13,037 nucleotides of DNA from IMG/VR virus record IMGVR_UViG_2617270938_000002. One strand, 5' to 3'. Shown one piece after another: positions 596 through 12,748 of the stretch. Below the pieces are notes generated by a model. The model saw nothing but the letters and a program-made list of their open reading frames with translations. It was not told the origin of the DNA and made no database searches. Origin of the DNA: a virus (lineage: Duplodnaviria > Heunggongvirae > Uroviricota > Caudoviricetes). Within the stretch, counting starts at the first letter, position 1; every line of letters begins with the position of its first letter. The position numbers and the translations under genes are program-made.

Positions 596-1195
596 TCAGA
601 ACTTATAACCGACACCCATGATGAAACCGTCAGTGCGCCAGTCACCACTGCCGGAGCCTTCATAAGCAATATCAATGGCCACGGATTCGGTCGGGTTAAA
701 CTGCACGCCAGCCCCCCACGCCAGAGACGTGTTGCTGCGGCGACCGTCATCACTTCCGGTCAGCACGTCGTGCGTTTTCCCCTTGTTGTCAGTTACGCGG
801 AGATAATCCCCGGAGAAAGTCGACACACGGCTGTAAGCCACACCCGCCATCGCATACGCGCTGAACCATTCATTCACGCGCACAGACGGCCCCGCCATTA
901 CGCTGAACCAGCGGTTACGAACGGAATCTTCATGCCAGCGGGTATCGCTGTAACGGGTAAGCTGGCGATTCTTGTCTCCTGCATAGCTGAATGACGTCAC
1001 CAGCCCCAGTGTGTCCGTAAACTCATAACGGTATTTCACGTTAATCCCGTTCAGATCATCGCTGCCGGGAACGTTGGTCCGGGCATGAAGATACCCCGCG
1101 CTCAGCGTGGACTGATGTTCAGATGCCCATGCAGGCGCACCGGATACGGCCAGACAAATGGCTGCGGACAAAATGGCGGCATAAAGTTTACGCAT
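596..1195 (-). CDS. lom: Lom outer-membrane protein (Ail/Lom/PagC family), 199 aa
   Basis: ORF translation has a signal-peptide-like N-terminus ([24 protein letters not shown]) and a C-terminal aromatic residue (GVGYKF) typical of beta-barrel outer-membrane proteins; overall resemblance to lambda Lom; sits between J and stf as in lambda; GAGAGGT Shine-Dalgarno upstream. Confidence 0.9.
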
Positions 1196-1218
1196 AATTA
1201 CCTCTCGCTTTTCTGCAA

Positions 1219-1243
1219 TAAAAAAGGCACCATTTCTGGTGCC
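1219..1243 (-). terminator. Rho-independent terminator between J and lom
   Basis: Stem GGCACC (1226-1231) / GGTGCC (1238-1243) with flanking A-T pairs, followed on the minus strand by TTTTTTATT (complement of 1219-1225). Confidence 0.55.
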
Positions 1244-1264
1244 TTTATATGGGTTATAACAACT

Positions 1265-3685
<2,421 letters not shown>

Positions 3686-3741
3686 TCACGCTCCATAAAC
3701 GACAAAACCGCCCGCAGGCGGTTTCACATAAACGTTTTTCA

Positions 3742-4389
3742 TCAGCGACCAATCACCACAACCTGACCACCATCCCCTTCGTCTGCCGTGCTGATCTCCT
3801 GAGAGACCACCCGCGACCCCACGCGCATTTCACCGTACAGAACGGGCAGAACATTGCCCTGGGCAACCATGTTATCCAGTGACGAGAAATAGGTGTTCTG
3901 TTTGCCGTTATCTGTACTTGCTGCCGTGGGCGTCCTGGCTTTCGGTGCCAGCATCTGCGCCACTCCGCCCAGGATCATACTGGCCCCTGCCGCATACATG
4001 CCCGATACAGCCGCGGCACCCAGCCAGCCCACAGGGTTCCACCATGCCACCGCAATCAGCGCCGCCCCCAGCACCACCTGAAACACACCGCCACTTTTAG
4101 CTCCCGCCAGACGCGGCACGATGTGGATCACGGCACCATTTGCCAGCGGCTCATTAAGACGGGCAGACAATTCGGTTTCACCTGCATCACGCCCGGCAAT
4201 GCGTACCTGGTACCAGCCGTCGCTCAGTTTCTGACGAAACGCCGGGATCTGCATGGCCAGCGCCCGGATGGCTTCGGACCCCGTTTTCACTCGAAGGTCG
4301 ATGCGGCGGCCAAATCGTTGTAAATCCCCGTAAAGGCAGATGCGTGCCATGCCCGGTGACGCCAGAGGGAGTGTGTGCGTCGCTGCCAT
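3742..4389 (-). CDS. I: Tail assembly protein I, 215 aa
   Basis: Translation MAATHTLPLASPGMARICLYGDLQRFGRRIDLRVKTG ... NGKQNTYFSSLDNMVAQGNVLPVLYGEMRVGSRVVSQEISTADEGDGGQVVVIGR matches lambda I at both ends; correct position between K and J. Confidence 0.9.
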   Translation of the reverse strand: MAATHTLPLASPGMARICLYGDLQRFGRRIDLRVKTGSEAIRALAMQIPAFRQKLSDGWYQVRIAGRDAGETELSARLNEPLANGAVIHIVPRLAGAKSGGVFQVVLGAALIAVAWWNPVGWLGAAAVSGMYAAGASMILGGVAQMLAPKARTPTAASTDNGKQNTYFSSLDNMVAQGNVLPVLYGEMRVGSRVVSQEISTADEGDGGQVVVIGR

Positions 4390-5030
4390 TTGTCGGTGTA
4401 CCTCTCTCGTTTGCTCAGTTGTTCAGGAATATGGTGCAGCAGCTCGCCATCACCACAGTAAATGGCGGCATGATTCGGCACCGATGAACCAAAACAGCAC
4501 AGCAGCACATCGCCCGGTTGTGCTGATGACAACGGCACCTGATACAGCCCTGTGGCCTCCAGATTATCCAGATAGAGATTCTGACCGTGACGCCACCAGT
4601 CATCCCCGCGATGAAAATCCGGCATCTCAATCCCCGCCAGATGATAAGCATCCCGGAACAGCGTGTAACAGTCCGTCACCCCGTGCTCAAAGCGCCGCCC
4701 GGTGAGATGCGGCACACAGCGGAACTTATGAATCGTCCCCCGGCAGACCAGCCACCACGGCAAATCACTCTGCACCTGCAGCCGCCGGTCGGCCTCACTC
4801 AGCCAGGGCAGACCACCGGGGTGGCTGTGGACCAGTGCCACAATCTCTCCCTGCATTTCTGCACTCAGCCAGTCCTCCGGCGACATCCGGAAATACGCCT
4901 CCGGCTCACCGGAGATATTCACGCAGGGAAAATATCTTTCCCCCTCCGGTGTTCTCACCACGAAGCCGCACGACTCCGCTGGCGCACATCGCCGGGCGTG
5001 CGCCAGAATCGCTGATTCTGTCTCTGTCAT
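4287..5030 (-). CDS. K: Tail assembly protein K (MPN/JAMM plus NlpC/P60 domains), 247 aa from the ATG at 5030
   Basis: JAMM motif HSHPGGLPWLSEAD (HxHx7Sx2D) and an NlpC/P60-like Cys...His arrangement (TDCYTLF ... NHAAIY). Overlaps I by 103 bp, the same length I recall for the lambda K/I overlap. The ORF-track ORF begins at a GTG at 5039; the lambda-annotated start would correspond to the internal Met at 4886. Confidence 0.85.
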   Translation of the reverse strand: MTETESAILAHARRCAPAESCGFVVRTPEGERYFPCVNISGEPEAYFRMSPEDWLSAEMQGEIVALVHSHPGGLPWLSEADRRLQVQSDLPWWLVCRGTIHKFRCVPHLTGRRFEHGVTDCYTLFRDAYHLAGIEMPDFHRGDDWWRHGQNLYLDNLEATGLYQVPLSSAQPGDVLLCCFGSSVPNHAAIYCGDGELLHHIPEQLSKRERYTDKWQRRTHSLWRHRAWHASAFTGIYNDLAAASTFE

Positions 5031-5035
5031 GGGAT

Positions 5036-5734
5036 TCACTGCGAAAGTTTGTTAATGGAAAGGAAGCCGCCAAAGTTGCCGACGTTATTGCGAAACTTAC
5101 AGCCGCTCAGGCATTTGCTGCATTTATCCTTCGTGATATCGGACGTCGGCTGATCATATTCATCCGCGACCGCCGGACCGTGATAACCGCACTCATCACC
5201 GCGATAGGTCCAGGTGCAGGTGTTGGCCAGCATGATACGTCCCGGAAAAACGGCACCGTCCGTTTCCGTCGGCGTGGACAGTACAAAAGAGGCACTCACC
5301 GCGCTCAGTTCGCTGCACTGCTCGATGCGCCAGCGGCTGATCACCTCCTGCTCCGGATCGGCGTCACTGTTTCCGTTGACGAAGTTCACCGCATCCAGAA
5401 AACGGGCGTAAACCTTACGCCGGACCACCGTTCCTCCGACCAGACTCTGCAGGTCTTCCGCCATCCCGGTGACCATGCCGTGCAGGTTAGAAACCGTCAG
5501 TGTCGGACGGGCAGCACTGCCCTTGCCGTTCAGTTCAAATCCCGTCCCCTGAATGGGATACGCCTGATACTGTCGCCCCTGCCAGGTGACCGGCTCACCT
5601 TTTTCGTTCTGCTCATTACAGAAAAAATAACGTTCTCCACCGACCTCTGTCAGATCGATTTCCCAGAGCACCACCTGGGCTGACTGAGTGAGGCGTGTCG
5701 TCTCATGATGTGTTTCCTGTGGAATATCCTGCAT
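5036..5734 (-). CDS. L: Minor tail protein L, 232 aa
   Basis: Translation MQDIPQETHH...VVLWEIDLTEVGGERYFFCNEQNEKGEPVTWQGRQYQAYPIQG...CSKCLSGCKFRNNVGNFGGFLSINKLSQ matches lambda L; same length as lambda L. Confidence 0.9.
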   Translation of the reverse strand: MQDIPQETHHETTRLTQSAQVVLWEIDLTEVGGERYFFCNEQNEKGEPVTWQGRQYQAYPIQGTGFELNGKGSAARPTLTVSNLHGMVTGMAEDLQSLVGGTVVRRKVYARFLDAVNFVNGNSDADPEQEVISRWRIEQCSELSAVSASFVLSTPTETDGAVFPGRIMLANTCTWTYRGDECGYHGPAVADEYDQPTSDITKDKCSKCLSGCKFRNNVGNFGGFLSINKLSQ

Positions 5735-5743
5735 CAGAGACTC

Positions 5744-6073
5744 CTATGCCACGACCTGTTCAAAATCTGCCGTTATGGTTACCCACAACGCCCCCACGCT
5801 TGCCGACCATTTACGACAAACCACCCTGATCGGCTTCCAGTCATAAGGTGGCGTCCACTGAAATGCGCGGACGCCACCGTGCCGTTCCAGAAAGGCTTTT
5901 AAAGATGGGTGTTCACATTTACGAACACGTATCGTCACGCTGTAAGTCGACAACTGGTTATTCAGTCCCGCCGCACGACGCTGTTCATAACCATCGCCCA
6001 GCTTCACTGTCACCACTTTCGGCTCTGATACCACATTCATATCCGGGCGCACTTTCCAGTGAAACGTCTCCAT
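5744..6073 (-). CDS. M: Minor tail protein M, 109 aa
   Basis: Translation METFHWKVRPDMNVVSEPKVVTVKLGDGYEQRRAAGLNNQL... matches lambda M; same length; start overlaps the H-fragment stop (TAATG). Confidence 0.9.
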   Translation of the reverse strand: METFHWKVRPDMNVVSEPKVVTVKLGDGYEQRRAAGLNNQLSTYSVTIRVRKCEHPSLKAFLERHGGVRAFQWTPPYDWKPIRVVCRKWSASVGALWVTITADFEQVVA

Positions 6074-7083
6074 TACCGATATGCTCCACTTAACCGACCA
6101 CCATCACGGGCCTGCTGTTGCATAAAGTCCGCTGCCGCTTTTTTCCCAAGGTCATAAACCACCTTCAGGGCAGCCGGACCTATCTGCCCGTTCGTGCCAT
6201 CGTTATTGATCTCGATGTTGTACTGCGGGGCAAACATCGCCATACCTGAACCACCAATATCCGCCACAACCCCCAGCTTACCGTCAGCACCACGACGCAG
6301 TGGCAGAATGGCTTCAGGTCCAGCTTCCCCCATCACACCCGCGCCTTTTGCAAAAGCAAAAAACGTCGGACGGTTAACCACCGTGCCACTGTAACGACTC
6401 AAATCAGCAGACTGATAAATCCCCCCATTGGCATTCAGGGAAAGGCTGCTGAGATCAAATCCCAGTACACTGCCAATCCCTTTTATCGATTTCATCATGG
6501 TTGCCTGCGCCAGGATTTTCGCCATATCTGACAGCACCGAAGAGGTGAAGGATTTGAAGTTGAGTTTGCCGGTAGTGACAAAAGTTGCCAGGCCATTTCC
6601 CATGTTGCTGAAGGCTGACGAGAACCCCTGTTCTGCTGTTCCTGCCGTATTGTCTGCATCCACGGTAAAATCCTGAAATGCACGCAGGACTCCGTTTTTC
6701 CAGTTACCCTGCACAACTTCAAGCTGTTGCCAGTAACGGCGATTCTCATTCAGTTGTCGGTTCAGGCTCTCCGTCAGCGCCTGCTCGGCCTTTCTGTAGT
6801 CATCCGTGTTATATGTCCCTTTCTGCTCACTATCCCGCCTCAACTGCTCCAGCTGTTGCTGGTATTTCTGGCGAAGACTCAGTTGTACCTGATATCGCTG
6901 CCGCTGCTGATCACCCATACCGCCAATAACCCCGCCAAGCATCATGCCTTTCGGTGACATCAGAGTGTCTATCCATCCGGCACGGTTAGCCAGCGTTATC
7001 CCGGATCCCCTCACAGACGGATTGCGCCCGGAGCGTGTCGCATTGTGGTCATGTTCTCGCTGTGCCAGTCGGAATGAGGCCAC
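6073..7083 (-). pseudogene. H: Tail tape-measure protein H, C-terminal fragment only (N-terminal part of the gene absent)
   Basis: The C-terminal part of the 336-aa ORF (INNDGTNGQIGPAALKVVYDLGKKAAADFMQQQARDGG) resembles the lambda H C-terminus and is followed directly by M. Lambda H is 853 aa, but only about 1 kb of gene is present here and the ORF's N-terminal residues do not look like tape-measure sequence. The upstream limit of the fragment is uncertain. Confidence 0.75.
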
Positions 7084-7368
7084 TGGCAGCCTTTTTCACG
7101 AAGTAACCAGCTTTCAAGACATTCCACGCCACCAGCACGACGGATCACTGCCTCATCGCGGAACACGGCCCGAACGGCAGGATCATCCGCCAGCGGTTGT
7201 GATGCCGCCGGAACGGCACCACTGGCGAAAGATGAATAACGCTCCGGCTCAGGCTCCAGCAGGACACGCCCCTGCATAAACAGGGGCATCAGCTCTGAAC
7301 CTGGCCTGAACAATACGATCCCCATACGCGGGGCAATTTCAGGGGTCAGTAGTGCTCTCACGGTCACC

Positions 7369-8166
7369 TCAATGAACGGTATCGAGCAGCTTTAACAGCT
7401 CAGTGAATCGGGATTCGAAGAAATGCGGCTGCGTCTCGCGCGGATTTGCAGGACTGGTGATGTTCTTGCCGAACATGCAGCCTTTCGCCGTCAGCGACCA
7501 GAATTTTTTGATGTTGTTAATCGCTGTACGGCTGTATCGTTCGCGCTGTTCGACGATCCCCAGCTTCGCCATCTGGTGATATGCCTGATTAGCCGTCAGG
7601 CGGATACCATACTGCTTCAGCAGTGCACTCAGTGACAGCGTGGGGCGGCTTGAGCCATCAGGCGCGTCAGCAGGAGCATCAATGGCATAACGCGGTGCCA
7701 GATTCGGTAAGCCAACAGCCTCCTGGAGTTTCTGACAGGCCCCAAGCACAGATGAGTTAGACAGATTTAACTCCCGGCGCATAAAGTCCAGCAGAATCAC
7801 ACCAGCCTTCATCTTGTCAGCAGCCTGTCCGGATAATTTTTCCGGTGCGCTGGTTACCATGTCGAAAGTACGGATCACCTTAAGATGGAATGACGGGCTT
7901 ATCCACATTGCATAGGCATACACCAGTTCTTTGCAGACATACGTCCCCTGGTTATTTCCGCCACGAATAACGTTAACTGGCTCTATATTGACCGAGTTGC
8001 AAATCTGCAACTCGCTTATTAAACGTTCAGTTTGCTCATTGCGGAGCCAGAATGCAGGCTTATGCTTATCCAGAGAACCGGCAGCCCTGTGAAGATCGTT
8101 CAGGCTGTAACGACCATAAGCATCACGACGAACTTCAATACCATCAATGACCATCAGATTATTCAT
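7369..8166 (-). CDS. KilA-N domain protein, 265 aa (possible antirepressor-type protein)
   Basis: N-terminal region MNNLMVIDGIEVRRDAYGRYSLNDLHRAAG...KPAFWLRNEQTERLI...GTYVCKELVYAYAMWISPSFHLKVI has the pattern I associate with KilA-N/APSES-type DNA-binding domains; strong Shine-Dalgarno AAGAGGAGAAA upstream of the ATG at 8166. Family assignment is from memory only. Confidence 0.6.
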   Translation of the reverse strand: MNNLMVIDGIEVRRDAYGRYSLNDLHRAAGSLDKHKPAFWLRNEQTERLISELQICNSVNIEPVNVIRGGNNQGTYVCKELVYAYAMWISPSFHLKVIRTFDMVTSAPEKLSGQAADKMKAGVILLDFMRRELNLSNSSVLGACQKLQEAVGLPNLAPRYAIDAPADAPDGSSRPTLSLSALLKQYGIRLTANQAYHQMAKLGIVEQRERYSRTAINNIKKFWSLTAKGCMFGKNITSPANPRETQPHFFESRFTELLKLLDTVH

Positions 8167-9801: not shown

Positions 9802-10140
9802 CTACTTCCCTGAATTTACGACGAAACTGTTCGAGCGGGCTGAAGCACTCATGCTCATAGCCTTCGCGGAGGTAGATAACCCGTTGTGTTTCCGGCTCCC
9901 AACGAATGACTCTGACGGGCACTCCGTAGTGATCTTTGAACCAGCGGTTAACTTGTCGCAAAGGACTGTCTCCTTCTGCCGGTTGAAATCACCCACAGCC
10001 CACTCTGCAAAGCTGTGGGTTACAATTTCCCTGTCACCTGGTACATTTACTGCATAGCAATACTCCACCTTCGCTTTTCCACCCGGTACAGGAAGCGCAA
10101 TCAGTTGCGAGCGACGGTAGTGTGTTGTTAAACTGTTCAT
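9802..10140 (-). CDS. Hypothetical protein, 112 aa
   Basis: ORF tightly packed between neighbours: its start overlaps the upstream gene stop (ATGA at 10137-10140) and its 3' end supplies a GAGGT Shine-Dalgarno for the O-like gene. The C-terminal third is low complexity, so the call is weak. Confidence 0.4.
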
Positions 10141-10700
10141 GCGTTAGTTTCTCCACAGTCACGACACGCCACGGCGCCCGGAGCTGCACACTCGCGGGCG
10201 TCATTACTTTCTGAAATGCAAAAAATTTTGTAGACCAGTGCTGCATGCTCCTGCAGCTTCGAAATTGAGAGGTACAGCTCGTCGTTAATTGCTGTCTTCT
10301 CATTCGGTTCCACTACACCGTCTTCAATTGCTGAACGAATCTGTTTTGAATAACTGCCGATCTGTTCAATGACTTCCAGCAGGCGCTGGTTTATATCGGC
10401 GTTCTCTACTTCCTCAATTTCAGGAAGCGATACGAACACCCCACCAGCAGACTGTGCGACAGCATCCGCAATGTAGTGAGTGCCAGCCGCGCGCTGTAAA
10501 ACCATTGCCCATCCCAGCGGGAAAATCTGATCGCCATAGGCACGAAGGCGGTTAAATAATGCGTTCTCTGTTACATCCAGCCAGTCAGCTGCTTCAGCGT
10601 AACCACCCGGCAACGCTGCGATAGTTTTTCTGACAGCTTTCACGTACCACTCAGGCTGTTTTTCTACTTTCCAGTGATACTTACCCACGGTTAGCCTCAT
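10137..10700 (-). CDS. Hypothetical regulatory protein at the cII position (possibly CII/YdaT-like), 187 aa, Cys-rich C-terminus
   Basis: Second gene of the rightward operon, directly after the cro-like gene. C-terminus [17 protein letters not shown] contains CxxC-like spacing. Family assignment is uncertain; an alternative GTG start at 10688 has a better Shine-Dalgarno. Confidence 0.45.
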
Positions 10701-10731: not shown

Positions 10732-10932
10732 TTAATCTTTCGGATAGATATCCGGTCTTAAGTCAGATTTCGTAATTGCACCTGACGTGCATTGCTCAAG
10801 TTTTTTAGCCAGCACAAAACTGGCTTTTTTATAACCATTGAAAACCAGCCGTAAGTAGCCAGGTGTTGAGCCAACTTTTCCGGCCAACTCGCCCTGCTGT
10901 TCTTTGGTTAAAGAGTCCCAATACGCTTTCAT
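10732..10932 (-). CDS. Cro-like / YdaS-family HTH regulator, 66 aa
   Basis: MKAYWDSLTKEQQGELAGKVGSTPGYLRLVFNGYKKASFVLAKKLEQCTSGAITKSDLRPDIYPKD; the C-terminal LRPDI motif and HTH-like core resemble YdaS-type Cro analogues (from memory). ATG at 10932 is preceded by GGAGGT at a 9-nt spacing. The ORF-track version (10732..11037) would overlap the cI start, so the internal start is preferred. Confidence 0.6.
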   Translation of the reverse strand: MKAYWDSLTKEQQGELAGKVGSTPGYLRLVFNGYKKASFVLAKKLEQCTSGAITKSDLRPDIYPKD

Positions 10933-11022
10933 ACAATATGTACCTCCGGTATACATATTACATGATTGAAATGAACCTTCAAGATACTTGTACCTTATCG
11001 GTACAAAGGTTTTAATTTCGTT
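10933..11022. promoter_or_regulatory. Immunity-region switch (OR-like): divergent promoters plus two 17-bp operator-like sites
   Basis: Sites TGTACC-tccgg-TATACA (10939-10955) and TGTACC-ttatc-GGTACA (10989-11005; the arms extend to a TTGTACC/GGTACAA inverted repeat). Candidate pR on minus strand: -35 TTGAAG (10977-10982), -10 TAATAT (10955-10960), 16-bp spacer. Candidate pRM on plus strand: -35 TTGTAC (10988-10993), -10 TTTAAT (11011-11016), 17-bp spacer, which would give a near-leaderless cI mRNA. Confidence 0.5.
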
Positions 11023-11697
11023 ATGAAAACAATCCATGACATCCGGCGGTCTAACGCCAGAAAACTGAGAGATGGTGTTGGCGGAAATTCATCCTTTGCC
11101 ACCATGATTGATCGCGAGCCAACCCAAACCAGCAGGTTTATGGGGGATGGCGCTACTAAAAATATCGGTGACAGCATGGCACGGCACATCGAAAAATGTT
11201 TCGACCTGCCTGTCGGATGGCTTGATCAAGAACACCAGACAACGAACATCACAAAAAAACCTGATGTTTCAATCACTAACAAACAAATAACGTTAGTCCC
11301 TGTCATATCATGGGTACAGGCCGGAGCATGGAAAGAAGTTGGCTATTCTGAGGTTGATTTGAGCACAGCAGAAACGTATCCCTGCCCTGTACCCTGTGGC
11401 GAAATGACTTATATCTTGCGGGTGATTGGTGATTCAATGATTGATGAGTACCGCCCTGGAGACATGATTTTTGTTGATCCCGAAGTCCCTGCCTGCCACG
11501 GTGACGACGTTATTGCATTGATGCACGATACAGGCGAAACCACCTTCAAGCGATTGATAGAAGATGGAACACAGCGTTATCTCAAAGCATTAAACCCAAA
11601 CTGGCCTGAGCCTTACATTAAGATTAACGGTAATTGCTCTATAATTGGTACAGTGATTTTCTCGGGAAAACCAAGAAGATACACAATAAAGGCCTAA
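11023..11697 (+). CDS. CI-like prophage repressor with C-terminal S24 (LexA-like) autopeptidase domain, 224 aa
   Basis: C-terminal domain has an Ala-Gly cleavage-site candidate (WVQAGAWKE), the catalytic Ser context (VIGDSMIDEY) and the Lys context (TFKRLIEDG), closely paralleling lambda CI (GNSM ... FKKL). Divergently arranged with the cro-like gene. Confidence 0.8.
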   Translation: MKTIHDIRRSNARKLRDGVGGNSSFATMIDREPTQTSRFMGDGATKNIGDSMARHIEKCFDLPVGWLDQEHQTTNITKKPDVSITNKQITLVPVISWVQAGAWKEVGYSEVDLSTAETYPCPVPCGEMTYILRVIGDSMIDEYRPGDMIFVDPEVPACHGDDVIALMHDTGETTFKRLIEDGTQRYLKALNPNWPEPYIKINGNCSIIGTVIFSGKPRRYTIKA

Positions 11698-11709
11698 TCA
11701 ATATTTATG

Positions 11710-11733
11710 AACCTGCTTCGGCAGGTTTTTTTA
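11710..11733 (+). terminator. Rho-independent terminator after the cI-like gene
   Basis: Stem AACCTGC (11710-11716), loop TTCG, stem GCAGGTT (11721-11727), followed by a T-run through 11732. Confidence 0.7.
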
Positions 11734-11736
11734 TAC

Positions 11737-11769
11737 TTGACAATGTACCCATGAGATACATAATGTATC
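11737..11769 (+). promoter_or_regulatory. pL-like early-left promoter with overlapping operator
   Basis: Consensus -35 TTGACA (11737-11742); -10 candidate CATAAT (11759-11764) with a 16-bp spacer; operator-like TGTACC-catga-GATACA (11744-11760) with the same architecture as the two OR-region sites; perfect 15-bp palindrome GATACATAATGTATC (11755-11769) over the -10. Confidence 0.55.
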
Positions 11770-12202
11770 TAAAAGAAACATAACACAGGCAAGATTAAAA
11801 CAAAATTTGGTTGTAACACGGCGTATGGCACATGCGTCGTTAGCGGTCTGGTGACGTTAAAGGGGACAATCCACTCCTTGCTCGAGCAAACAAACCAGGT
11901 AGCCGGAATGTGCAAGTCAATGATGATGCTGATAAGACGCCTAACCAGCGTGGCGATTCGGTTTGACGCCTGGGAAGAGACCAGGGTGCAACGATGAGGG
12001 CATTTATGGAACCGCGACAAAGTGTGGTGCCGTAACTGGCTAAGTGCTCTCAGCGTTGTGGTGAATGCGCAGACTGATGCGCGAAAGACATTGCAGCTAT
12101 TGCGGAAAAGAGCTGTTCGGCGGGGCAATTAAACGCCCGTGAGAGTCTGAAATAACCGCAAGCCGGAGATCAGCACCGGTCACCACAACAGCCACTGCTT
12201 TG

Positions 12203-12337
12203 GCGGTACCAGTTTGTACACTTGCTTCCGGCTGGTACCGCTCTTTTTACAAAACAGAGAAGAGCATCACCGGACGACGGGCTCATAACCCAATCCATCC
12301 GGGCGGCTGCCACCGCAGGTGTTCTTCTCTGTTTTGT
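12203..12337 (+). promoter_or_regulatory. Structured leader elements upstream of the first early-left gene: two inverted repeats and a boxA-like motif
   Basis: Inverted repeat A: GCGGTACCAG (12203-12212) / CTGGTACCGC (12232-12241). BoxA-like CGCTCTTTTTA (12239-12249). Inverted repeat B: ACAAAACAGAGAAGAGC (12249-12265) / GTTCTTCTCTGTTTTGT (12321-12337), 17 bp with one G-T position, enclosing 55 nt. Function not established. Confidence 0.4.
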
Positions 12338-12385
12338 GGAGAAACTAATCGGCCTTGCAGGGTCGATATGATGAGGAGCAGCAAA

Positions 12386-12748
12386 ATGGCTAGCGAACGC
12401 AGTACTGATGTGCAGGCATTTATCGGGGAGCTGGACGGCGGCGTATTTGAAACCAAAATCGGCGCAGTTCTCAGTGAAGTCGCTTCCGGTGTGATGAACA
12501 CGAAAACCAAAGGTAAGGTCTCACTCAACCTGGAAATCGAACCATTTGATGAGAACCGTGTGAAAATCAAACACAAACTCTCATATGTTCGCCCGACTAA
12601 CCGCGGGAAAATTTCCGAAGAAGACACCACCGAAACGCCGATGTATGTCAATCGCGGTGGTCGCCTGACTATTCTGCAGGAAGACCAGGGACAATTACTG
12701 ACTCTTGCCGGTGAACCTGACGGAAAACTCCGCGCAGCAGGTCATTAA
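12386..12748 (+). CDS. Hypothetical early-left protein, 120 aa
   Basis: ATG at 12386 preceded by GAGGAG (12373-12378) at a 7-nt spacing. The ORF-track ORF 12200..12748 begins at a TTG and its first 62 residues are Cys/Arg-rich junk overlapping the leader stems, so the internal ATG is preferred. No family recognised. Confidence 0.6.
   Translation: MASERSTDVQAFIGELDGGVFETKIGAVLSEVASGVMNTKTKGKVSLNLEIEPFDENRVKIKHKLSYVRPTNRGKISEEDTTETPMYVNRGGRLTILQEDQGQLLTLAGEPDGKLRAAGH

Follow-up and report, generated by a model that had tools for sequence, protein, structure and literature searches.

Several described RNAs resemble, in one respect or another, the element presented here. In bacteriophage lambda, the N leader carries a long stem that is cleaved by RNase III, and in HK022, a lambdoid phage without N, the early-left leader contains the promoter-proximal structured RNA put (putL and putR; ~70 nucleotides, nt, with two stem-loops, present twice per genome) upstream of terminators. 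The P1 c4 and P4 CI RNAs (Rfam family C4) are tRNA-like leader RNAs that are released by RNase P and act on their own operon. In the T4 tRNA cluster (the stable RNAs "species 1 and 2") and in MALAT1/mascRNA, structured RNAs other than tRNAs are cotranscribed with tRNAs or tRNA mimics, and their ends are set by tRNA-processing enzymes. GOLLD and ROOL are large conserved structured RNAs of phages and prophages, of unknown function, that typically lie beside tRNA genes. Here we analyzed a leader in a 13,037-nt stretch of tailed-phage DNA (IMG/VR record IMGVR_UViG_2617270938_000002; "the window" refers to this whole stretch), namely, positions 11770 to 12385, between a pL-like promoter and yfdP, the first early-left gene. 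This segment forms the 5' untranslated region of the early-left transcript, which is plausibly under repressor control, and is built of four conserved, covarying RNA modules, here termed A, B, T, and C. An original prediction, made from the sequence alone, had proposed a noncoding, highly structured leader at this place and had named RNA folding, a covariance-model scan, and BLAST comparison with related phages as ways to examine it.

The leader falls outside the nut, put, Rfam C4, model-called tRNA, and GOLLD/ROOL families and resembles phage leader RNAs and RNase P-released RNAs in its logic. As in lambda, it lies between pL and the first early-left gene, and RNase III could by analogy have a target in module C, whose 20-bp stem lies ~35 nt ahead of the Shine-Dalgarno sequence. 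However, no conserved boxA or boxB and no N gene are present here, and this stem is not a simple hairpin but closes, as outer helix, a three-way junction that is conserved. Put resembles it in being a structured leader RNA near the early-left promoter, upstream of terminators, in a lambdoid phage without N, whereas module A is ~240 nt long, has six helices plus a pseudoknot, occurs once per genome, and is also found outside early operons, fused to tRNAs. The earlier suggestion of a put-like element is not borne out in the sense of family membership, since there is one copy per genome and no similarity to the HK022 pL-nun region: in the comparisons made with put, BLAST at word size 7 gave nothing above chance in the HK022 cI-nun region, and R1, a covariance model built from the 5' domain of module A, had no match in HK022. 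A tRNA-shaped RNA within the untranslated leader of a phage regulatory operon, by analogy a presumable RNase P substrate, recalls c4 and CI, from which module B differs in having no Rfam C4 match, no reproducible complementarity to downstream targets, and a length of ~130 nt with a hypervariable arm. The boundaries of module A, at a tRNA 3' end in P1 and at a tRNA 5' end in epsilon15-like phages, are reminiscent of T4 species 1 and 2 and of MALAT1/mascRNA, although no sequence relationship exists and processing is predicted here. As to GOLLD and ROOL, which are likewise large conserved phage RNAs near tRNA genes, modules A and B are smaller (~375 nt together), are modular with a tRNA slot, and match neither family in Rfam at gathering score or at an E value of ≤10; the hosts also differ, module A being found in Enterobacterales and GOLLD/ROOL in Lactobacillales and in rumen and lake samples.

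When the 621-nt leader was folded and compared with shuffled sequences, the z score was -6.2 on the plus strand and -2.0 on the minus strand. The thermodynamic signal was located in the 3' part, in terminator T and module C (Table 1), and the 5' 246 nt alone, with a z score of -1.5, are supported by covariation and not by stability. Related prophages keep the stems with compensatory changes, which agrees with the proposal of a conserved structured phage RNA. Both inverted repeats described previously were found, the 10-bp repeat as given (12203 to 12212 with 12232 to 12241) and the 17-bp repeat within a longer one (12249 to 12273 with 12313 to 12337; 25 nt at 84% identity). A third, perfect 10-bp repeat (12055 to 12064 with 12180 to 12189) had gone unmentioned, the start of the first gene lies at 12386 rather than at 12387, and three features had been missed: the mosaic of mobile modules, the tRNA mimic in place of a true tRNA-Arg, and the identity of the 10-bp repeat as an intrinsic terminator.

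Table 1. Features of the leader (upper part) and of the flanking early-left region (lower part); positions refer to the window
Feature	Position	Strand	Remarks
Module A	11818-12058	+	~240-nt structured RNA domain, helices H1 to H6 plus one pseudoknot; covariation
H1	11818-11840	+	10-bp hairpin, loop GCA; among 163 sequences, pair 6 G-C in 102, A-U in 60
H2	11848-11898	+	long hairpin, variable tip; base 11848-11852 with 11894-11898; pair 2 C-G in 99, U-A in 64
Conserved 19-mer	11898-11916	+	GGUAGCCGGAAUGUGCAAG; unique in window
H4	11937-11963 including pseudoknot	+	hairpin, 11937-11940 with 11948-11951; all four pairs covary
Pseudoknot	11943-11946 with 11960-11963	+	H4 loop AACC with GGUU; pair 1 C-G in 128, A-U in 28 sequences
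H5	11969-11985	+	5-bp hairpin, conserved purine loop GAAGAGA; three pairs swap (C-G to G-C, U-A to C-G)
H6	11989-12058	+	~17-bp helix, 11989-12005 with 12042-12058; 3' strand leads straight into module B
Module B	12058-12190	+	tRNA-like cloverleaf, tail AACA; minimum-energy fold four-way cloverleaf, z -2.8
Acceptor-like stem of B	12058-12063 with 12181-12186		
D-like hairpin of B	12067-12082		
Variable arm of B			79 nt
T-like hairpin of B	12162-12180		
Intrinsic terminator T	12202-12248	+	GGCGGUACCAG...CUGGUACCGC then UCUUUUU; free energy -21.2 kcal/mol, z -4.8
Module C	12249-12337	+	89-nt three-way junction, 20-bp outer stem, conserved core GACGGGCUCAUAACCCAAUCCA; z -7.3
Shine-Dalgarno sequence GAGGAG	12373-12378	+	precedes yfdP
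yfdP	ATG 12386, stop 12748	+	first early-left gene
CII-like gene	10137-10700		lambdoid immunity region
cro-like gene	10732-10932		divergent from repressor gene
S24-peptidase repressor (cI-like) gene	11023-11697		lambdoid immunity region
Intrinsic terminator of cI-like gene	11709-11728	+	8-pair hairpin then T-run, immediately 3' of the S24 repressor frame
pL-like sigma-70 promoter	11737-11764	+	TTGACA-16-CATAAT; 11/12 consensus positions
Two operator-like palindromes	11743-11781		ATGTA-N9-TACAT; overlap promoter spacer, -10 element, and start site

The proposed Rfam scan was run and detected no known family in the leader, either at gathering scores on the whole window, at an E value of ≤10 on positions 11600 to 12500, or in 12 diverse relatives; matches overall comprised only tRNAs plus one int-alpA RNA, and the weak matches in the window were terminator look-alikes. 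No description of the element was found in the literature, including by exact-sequence searches, or in a preprint on the Pas small RNA, an ST64B transcriptome paper, a 50-genome noncoding RNA (ncRNA) paper, and the main text (supplements apart) of a catalogue of 10,006 viral structured-RNA candidates. Module A could be one of the 8495 IMG/VR candidates left unnamed in PMC10690425. Judged by Rfam 15 and by the literature that could be searched, it is an undescribed family.

The folding energy of module A is unremarkable; the case for it rests on covariation. With the 19-mer GGTAGCCGGAATGTGCAAG as key, ~270 copies were fetched, comprising 201 unique sequences in 86 clusters at 92% identity; the invariance of this 19-mer among the fetched loci is thus by construction. 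Pairing in the 5' domain was counted in 62 sequences less than 95% identical and compared with 500 shuffles and with slid-partner controls. Of the cells, 94.9% were paired (86.7% in the shuffles; 27 to 46% with slid partners), 15 pairs changed on both sides, and the covariation score of 0.254 (0.115 in the shuffles) was reached by 0 of 500 shuffles. In addition to the pairs listed in Table 1, pairs 3 and 4 of H2 swap as well, and the alternatives are seen directly when copies are compared: the pseudoknot is UAACC/GGUUU in the window (with A-U) and UCACC/GGUGU in the majority of copies, and H5 is CCUGG/CCAGG in the window, CCUCG/CGAGG in the majority, and GCCGG/CCGGC in others. By eye only, the pseudoknot of one divergent copy (L225) is apparently UGGUC/GACCA. 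The covarying helices are separated by long invariant single-stranded stretches. The AUGUGC of the 19-mer could pair with GCACAU at the tip of H1, a candidate pairing at which no variation occurs. Model R1 scored the window copy at 136 bits (E value, 5e-40) and a divergent Klebsiella copy without the exact 19-mer at 123 bits.

H6 encloses an insert of 40 to 110 nt that varies across copies. Its strands occur in 78 distinct combinations, mostly 15- to 18-bp duplexes, and among 32 distinct strand pairs 93% of the cells were paired, compared with 81% after shuffling; 11 of the 17 positions showed several pair types. As a separate observation, the H6 inserts of six loci (L095, L127, L133, L200, L280, and L281; e.g., L127 at ~1620 to 1720) contain two hairpins with canonical T-loops (GGUUCAAUUCC and GGUCCGUUCGAUUCGGAC), which look like tRNA fragments or T-loop modules, and the H6 insert of three others (L141, L155, and L191) holds the core motif of module C.

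Directly downstream of H6 lies a slot for a tRNA. Thirty-nine unique copies have a bona fide tRNA-Arg(UCU) there, its acceptor stem beginning with GUGGCAU directly after the H6 3' strand, and module B of the window shares with these copies the 5' junction (CGUU|GUGG) and the 3' flank to the nucleotide, which places it in the same slot. Its sequence reads GUGGUGA-AU-GCGCA(GACUGA)UGCGC, 79 variable nt, and GCCGG(AGAUCAGCA)CCGGU-CACCAC-AACA, and it has tRNA geometry, with an acceptor-like stem of 6 to 7 bp, a 2-nt spacer, a D-like arm, and a 5-bp T-like arm stacked on the acceptor. The scaffold covaries (98.6% of cells paired, seven pairs changed on both sides, 0 of 500 shuffles), including every one of the five pairs in the D-like stem and two pairs in the T-like stem. 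Complementarity between the D-like loop (GCUGA) and the T-like loop (UCAGC), in which only wobble-compatible changes are seen, is suggestive of a Watson-Crick replacement of the tRNA elbow. Other copies in the slot have canonical D and T loops and expanded anticodon regions, and some end in ACCA with the trailer of the true tRNA. The slot thus holds a graded series, from true tRNA-Arg(UCU) to tRNA-shaped RNAs in which the anticodon arm is swapped for 50 to 150 nt of hypervariable sequence; the central arm varies in both length and sequence, and what is retained is the acceptor stem, arms of the D and T type, and the geometry of their stacking. ARAGORN called 0 tRNA or tmRNA genes in the window, and the Rfam tRNA model (RF00005) had no match in it; in module B, the 79-nt variable arm replaces an anticodon arm with a 7-nt loop. 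An antisense role of B like that of c4 or CI was considered and rejected: a crude duplex scan of B cores against their own flanks gave no consistent signal, its single outlier probably being a delimitation artefact. The complementarity of 12106 to 12116 with 12237 to 12247 in the window is absent from relatives.

Past module B, the 10-bp repeat forms the stem of T. A hairpin plus T-run was found at the equivalent distance in 195 of the 255 module A copies with enough flank, and the stems covary (GGCGGUGGCAG/CUGACCACCGCC, GGCGGUGAUGG/CUAUCACCGCC, and GGCGGUCGGCAG/GUCGACCGCC). With a GC-rich hairpin directly before a U-tract at a conserved position, T has the predicted properties of an intrinsic terminator, and no promoter-like site was found between T and yfdP in the window. 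The string CGCTCTTTTTA (12239 to 12249), previously taken as boxA-like, turned out to be the 3' end of this stem plus the U-tract. Relatives have CCGCC, CCGTC, or the like in place of its GCUC part, and the nut reading fails because GCUC changes along with its pairing partner. When a lambda-type nut was tried as a candidate, a conserved single-stranded boxA (CGCUCUUA / UGCUCUUUAACAA) was not seen, relatives showing CCACCGCCCUUUUU, GACCGCCCAUUUU, and similar, and neither a boxB-like hairpin 3' of 12249 (other than module C) nor a cognate Arg-rich N gene downstream was detected. The UGCUCUU strings in H6 and module C covary with their partners, and the boxA reading was rejected there too. In O157 typing phage 9 (L004), two tandem intrinsic terminators (2362 to 2397 and 2482 to 2497) follow the unit of module A and tRNA-Arg and precede the small gene p03, itself followed by a third terminator; the ~110 nt of conserved sequence (ACAGCAGGACGCCAUUGCGAUGAC...) between the first two could be a small RNA or a regulatory hairpin.

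Module C, whose outer stem corresponds to the 17-bp repeat, is found with a length of 89 to 90 nt, a conserved core, and covariation of both its outer stem and its inner hairpin in Escherichia, Salmonella ST64B, Citrobacter, Kosakonia, Phytobacter, and Pseudescherichia. In the genera compared, it always lies directly past the terminator U-tract and ~45 nt upstream of a yfdP/sb37-type gene. The 20-bp outer stem covaries and is a candidate substrate of the RNase III type. H6 and module C share the pattern ..AAGAGCA..(insert)..UGCUCUU..GUUGUGG and look like paralogues. The downstream gene carries the RefSeq name yfdP, matches phrog_204 (function unknown), has no Pfam family, and is not Arg-rich, in line with the original description of it as unlike N. 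The CPS-53 prophage of Escherichia coli K-12 (L283, 3247 to 3605) retains yfdP and, of the leader, no more than its final ~20 nt (window 12367 to 12450), for which reason K-12 was discarded as a source of expression data; upstream of yfdP, CPS-53 has an unrelated region rich in direct repeats of the GACGG/TGACGGGTCAGATTTTGA type, adjoining a remnant of yfdO.

Module A moves as a unit with the tRNA slot and T. This cassette has three genomic settings, unrelated to one another: among 274 copies, 142 are preceded by an S24 repressor gene on the same strand, 93 are flanked by the TerL and portal genes, and 22 are followed by ban. In lambdoid relatives the homology starts at 11799, behind unrelated immunity regions, and a near-identical leader is present in the viable phages mEp460 (98.8% identical), cdtI, and Ayreon. 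The first ~250 nt of leader homology are 79 to 83% identical in P1 and epsilon15-like phages. In the latter (phiV10, O157 typing phage 9, SPN1S, Tyrion, and a Klebsiella prophage), the cassette lies in an oppositely oriented island between terminase and portal, and the homology of module A ends exactly at position +1 of the tRNA-Arg(UCU) gene. In P1 (NC_005856; L005), the 285-nt unannotated gap between trnI and ban holds only H1 to H5, i.e., the 5' domain (R1 score, 132 bits), which begins at the first base after the tRNA-Ile CCA (L005 positions 3011 to 3195, record positions 71010 to 71194). Elsewhere in P1, a 40-nt stretch corresponding to the 3' strand of H6 and the beginning of module B was seen at L005 positions 1806 to 1845, inside the plp gene on the opposite strand. 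No second copy of module A, on the pR side, was found in the window or in the complete mEp460 genome.

The leaders of ST64B, SfV, LLS, and phiNP (630 to 1070 nt) gave no R1 match, i.e., are without the module A 5' domain, and keep an H6-type helix, a tRNA-like element, a terminator, and module C. In three of these phages, another module, "D" (AACAGGCAGGACGCCCACGAAGTAGCCGCC..GGCATATGAAG..GGATGATTCG), replaces the A 5' domain after pL (ST64B, L279 at ~930 to 1010; phiNP, L280 at ~840 to 900; SfV, L002 at ~2585 to 2650), and in SfV orf33 plus a terminator is inserted between module D and the H6-type helix. By BLAST, the full leader is present in 796 and parts of it are present in 3082 of 5426 complete E. 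coli genomes. Module A occurs in 1833 of these 5426 genomes (about a third) and at 554 plasmid places, presumably P1-like; RefSeq annotation of it was never present. Among species-representative genomes the exact 19-mer was found in 24, namely, 22 Enterobacterales and two metagenome bins labelled Bacillota and Oscillospiraceae. In Tyrion (L126), the int-alpA RNA (RF02996; 44 bits; 2598 to 2662) follows the A/B cassette at a distance of ~900 nt, within the same island of opposite orientation.

The claim that the leader is noncoding was upheld. Its open reading frames encode 20 to 119 amino acids only, and a Pfam search with them gave zero matches. PHROG profiles matched two short frames, both of unknown function, phrog_3651 (12170 to 12313, minus strand) and phrog_33599 (12222 to 12371, plus strand), which cover the same conserved RNA core of module C on opposite strands and were probably built from miscalled frames over a conserved ncRNA. 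In relatives of other genera the corresponding frames are broken at differing places, with open lengths of 30 to 130 amino acids, and the peptide shared among relatives is only that encoded by the conserved RNA core. Indels of 1, 2, and 4 nt separate the leader from P1 and epsilon15-like phages, i.e., are not multiples of three, and many base pairs of module A are G-U pairs, which form on the plus-strand RNA only. The "hypothetical proteins" annotated in the leader of mEp460, Ayreon, and cdtI are best read as spurious.

Tentatively, we read the leader as a mobile ncRNA unit, derived from a tRNA cassette, within the pL operon, in which tRNA enzymes would cut the transcript, T would attenuate it, and C would control yfdP. 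Upon induction, pL would fire into the cassette, and tRNA-processing enzymes (RNase P at 12058 and 3'-end enzymes after 12186) would read B as a pre-tRNA, freeing module A as a discrete stable RNA with its 3' end locked in H6, together with the tRNA-shaped RNA B. Freed A and B might bind a host or phage factor or act as a tRNA decoy. The majority of transcripts would stop at T, which would make the cassette an attenuator of early-left expression, and read-through transcripts would carry C, the 20-bp stem of which, as an RNase III-type substrate or a protein-binding site, would set the stability or translation of yfdP. Processing is proposed because the boundaries of module A coincide with a tRNA 3' end (P1) and a tRNA 5' end (epsilon15-like phages) and because B retains exactly the features read by RNase P while the anticodon arm runs free. 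Several points weigh against this proposal. No expression or processing data for the element were found in the literature; RNase P cleavage is predicted from shape alone, and pairing of H6 to position -1 of B would be unfavourable for RNase P; module A alone is thermodynamically ordinary; and loci were fetched via an exact 19- or 22-mer, which biases the sample to close relatives. Moreover, the early-left genes depend on read-through of T because no promoter-like site follows it, and this is no better explained by passive attenuation than by regulated antitermination. Over half of the copies lie right after pL in prophages without an N gene beside pL, and mEp460 comes from a collection, which includes mEp390, isolated as Nus-dependent phages (PMC11893012).

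These last points are also what recommends a cis-acting, RNA-based processive antitermination, put-like in action but outside the put family, in which A or the H6/C stem-loops on the nascent pL RNA would modify polymerase, alone or with Nus factors or a phage protein, so that T and later terminators would be read through to yfdP, yfdQ, and int. We consider it unlikely, though the strongest of the alternatives. The 142 of 274 copies directly downstream of a same-strand repressor gene are near a promoter, the intrinsic terminator precedes the first gene without a promoter in between, the Ayreon annotation has a further terminator after yfdQ in the same operon, no N-like gene is annotated in Stx2a_WGPS2 or mEp460, and H5 is a short hairpin with a purine-rich loop reminiscent of boxB. 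However, an RNase P cut at the tRNA would sever a cis-acting RNA from polymerase, the copy is single in the window and in the whole mEp460 genome, and similarity to HK022 putL is absent. The settings argue in the same direction: in P1 the module lies just upstream of the ban ribosome-binding site, the epsilon15-like copies are fused to a tRNA in a moron-like island and are then followed by two tandem terminators, and the A 5' domain is missing from ST64B, SfV, LLS, and phiNP, whose operon, terminator, and module C are the same. That this domain might instead be the aptamer (for a metabolite, a tRNA, or a protein) of a riboswitch-like or factor-sensing attenuator, its occupancy deciding on a stop at T or on downstream processing, appears improbable. 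The pseudoknot and the invariant stretches between covarying helices, the location 5' proximal to a terminator, and, in P1, the position directly before the ban ribosome-binding site would suit an aptamer, but the distance from the domain to T is ~190 nt, taken up by H6 and module B, no conserved alternative pairing between them was found (the complementarity of 12106 to 12116 with 12237 to 12247 being confined to the window), the downstream genes are wholly different among settings, and no Rfam riboswitch model matches.

We give as little credence to a decaying tRNA gene cassette, i.e., the remnant of a phage tRNA-Arg unit (leader, tRNA, and terminator) in which the tRNA has degenerated into a mere spacer that incidentally attenuates pL. 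An intact tRNA-Arg(UCU) does occupy the slot of sister copies, the window prophage is itself defective, and ARAGORN calls no tRNA in the window; yet the B stems covary and keep tRNA geometry in Escherichia, Klebsiella, and Salmonella phages, with the central arm alone varying, module A retains 79 to 83% identity with compensatory changes across P1-like, epsilon15-like, and lambdoid phages, and viable phages (mEp460, cdtI, and Ayreon) carry a near-identical leader. Very improbable, and largely refuted, is a lambda-type nutL for an N-like protein or the remains of N or of another frameshifted gene; of these, a decayed N region had been raised in the original prediction. The boxA-like string, the PHROG matches to short frames, and the "hypothetical proteins" of several phage records had spoken for such readings, whereas the string is unconserved as T 3' arm plus U-tract with no boxB following, yfdP is neither Arg-rich nor a member of a Pfam family, the PHROG matches lie on opposite strands over one RNA core in frames interrupted at different places, and the indels are not multiples of three.

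Beyond the cassette-derived unit proposed above, module A could represent an unrecognised class of large pseudoknotted phage RNA (a ribozyme, ribonucleoprotein scaffold, or aptamer) with interchangeable tRNA-shaped cargo on its terminal helix, e.g., controlling the maturation or delivery of tRNAs or decoys versus tRNA-targeting host defences, or else a new RNA-only antiterminator of N-less lambdoid prophages of Enterobacteriaceae; both ideas are speculative and rather unlikely. The RNA is uncatalogued, being absent from Rfam and currently misannotated as "hypothetical proteins," and covaries strongly in temperate enterobacterial phages that include Stx-converting phages, cdtI, Klebsiella prophages, and P1; the Shigella phage SfV, which converts serotype, has B, T, and C only. 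Control of read-through from pL by the cassette, if real, would account for the expression of int, xis, and the early-left genes in a large group of N-less lambdoid prophages, and if A and B act in trans, they would be a new pair of phage ncRNAs made by tRNA-processing enzymes. The series from true tRNA-Arg to a mimic with a hypervariable arm is a natural experiment in the re-use of a tRNA scaffold. The element is accessible in the tractable phages mEp460, Ayreon, and P1, and modelling of the four modules would clear spurious frames and the PHROG families built on them.

The leader is preceded by a lambdoid immunity region (Table 1). The pL-like promoter was confirmed by its consensus match and by the operator-like palindromes alongside, and transcription from it probably starts near 11771. 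The palindrome occurs at 10938 (in the cI/cro intergenic region), 11743, and 11763, that is, 3 times as against 0.13 expected in 13 kb. Because these palindromes span the promoter and recur between cI and cro, the early-left promoter is plausibly repressor-controlled. The prophage in the window is defective, with a KilA-N gene (7369 to 8166) directly followed by a C-terminal fragment of the tail tape-measure gene (6073 to 7083, minus strand) and then by the tail genes L (5036 to 5734), I (3742 to 4389), and J (1265 to 3682), all on the minus strand, in the stretch 1265 to 8166. Among the ten selected open reading frames scanned, no Q, lysis, or head genes were found between KilA-N and the tail genes; mEp460 shows the intact order. 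A 602-amino-acid open frame (1085 to 2893, plus strand) antisense to tail gene J is probably a codon-bias artefact and not a gene.

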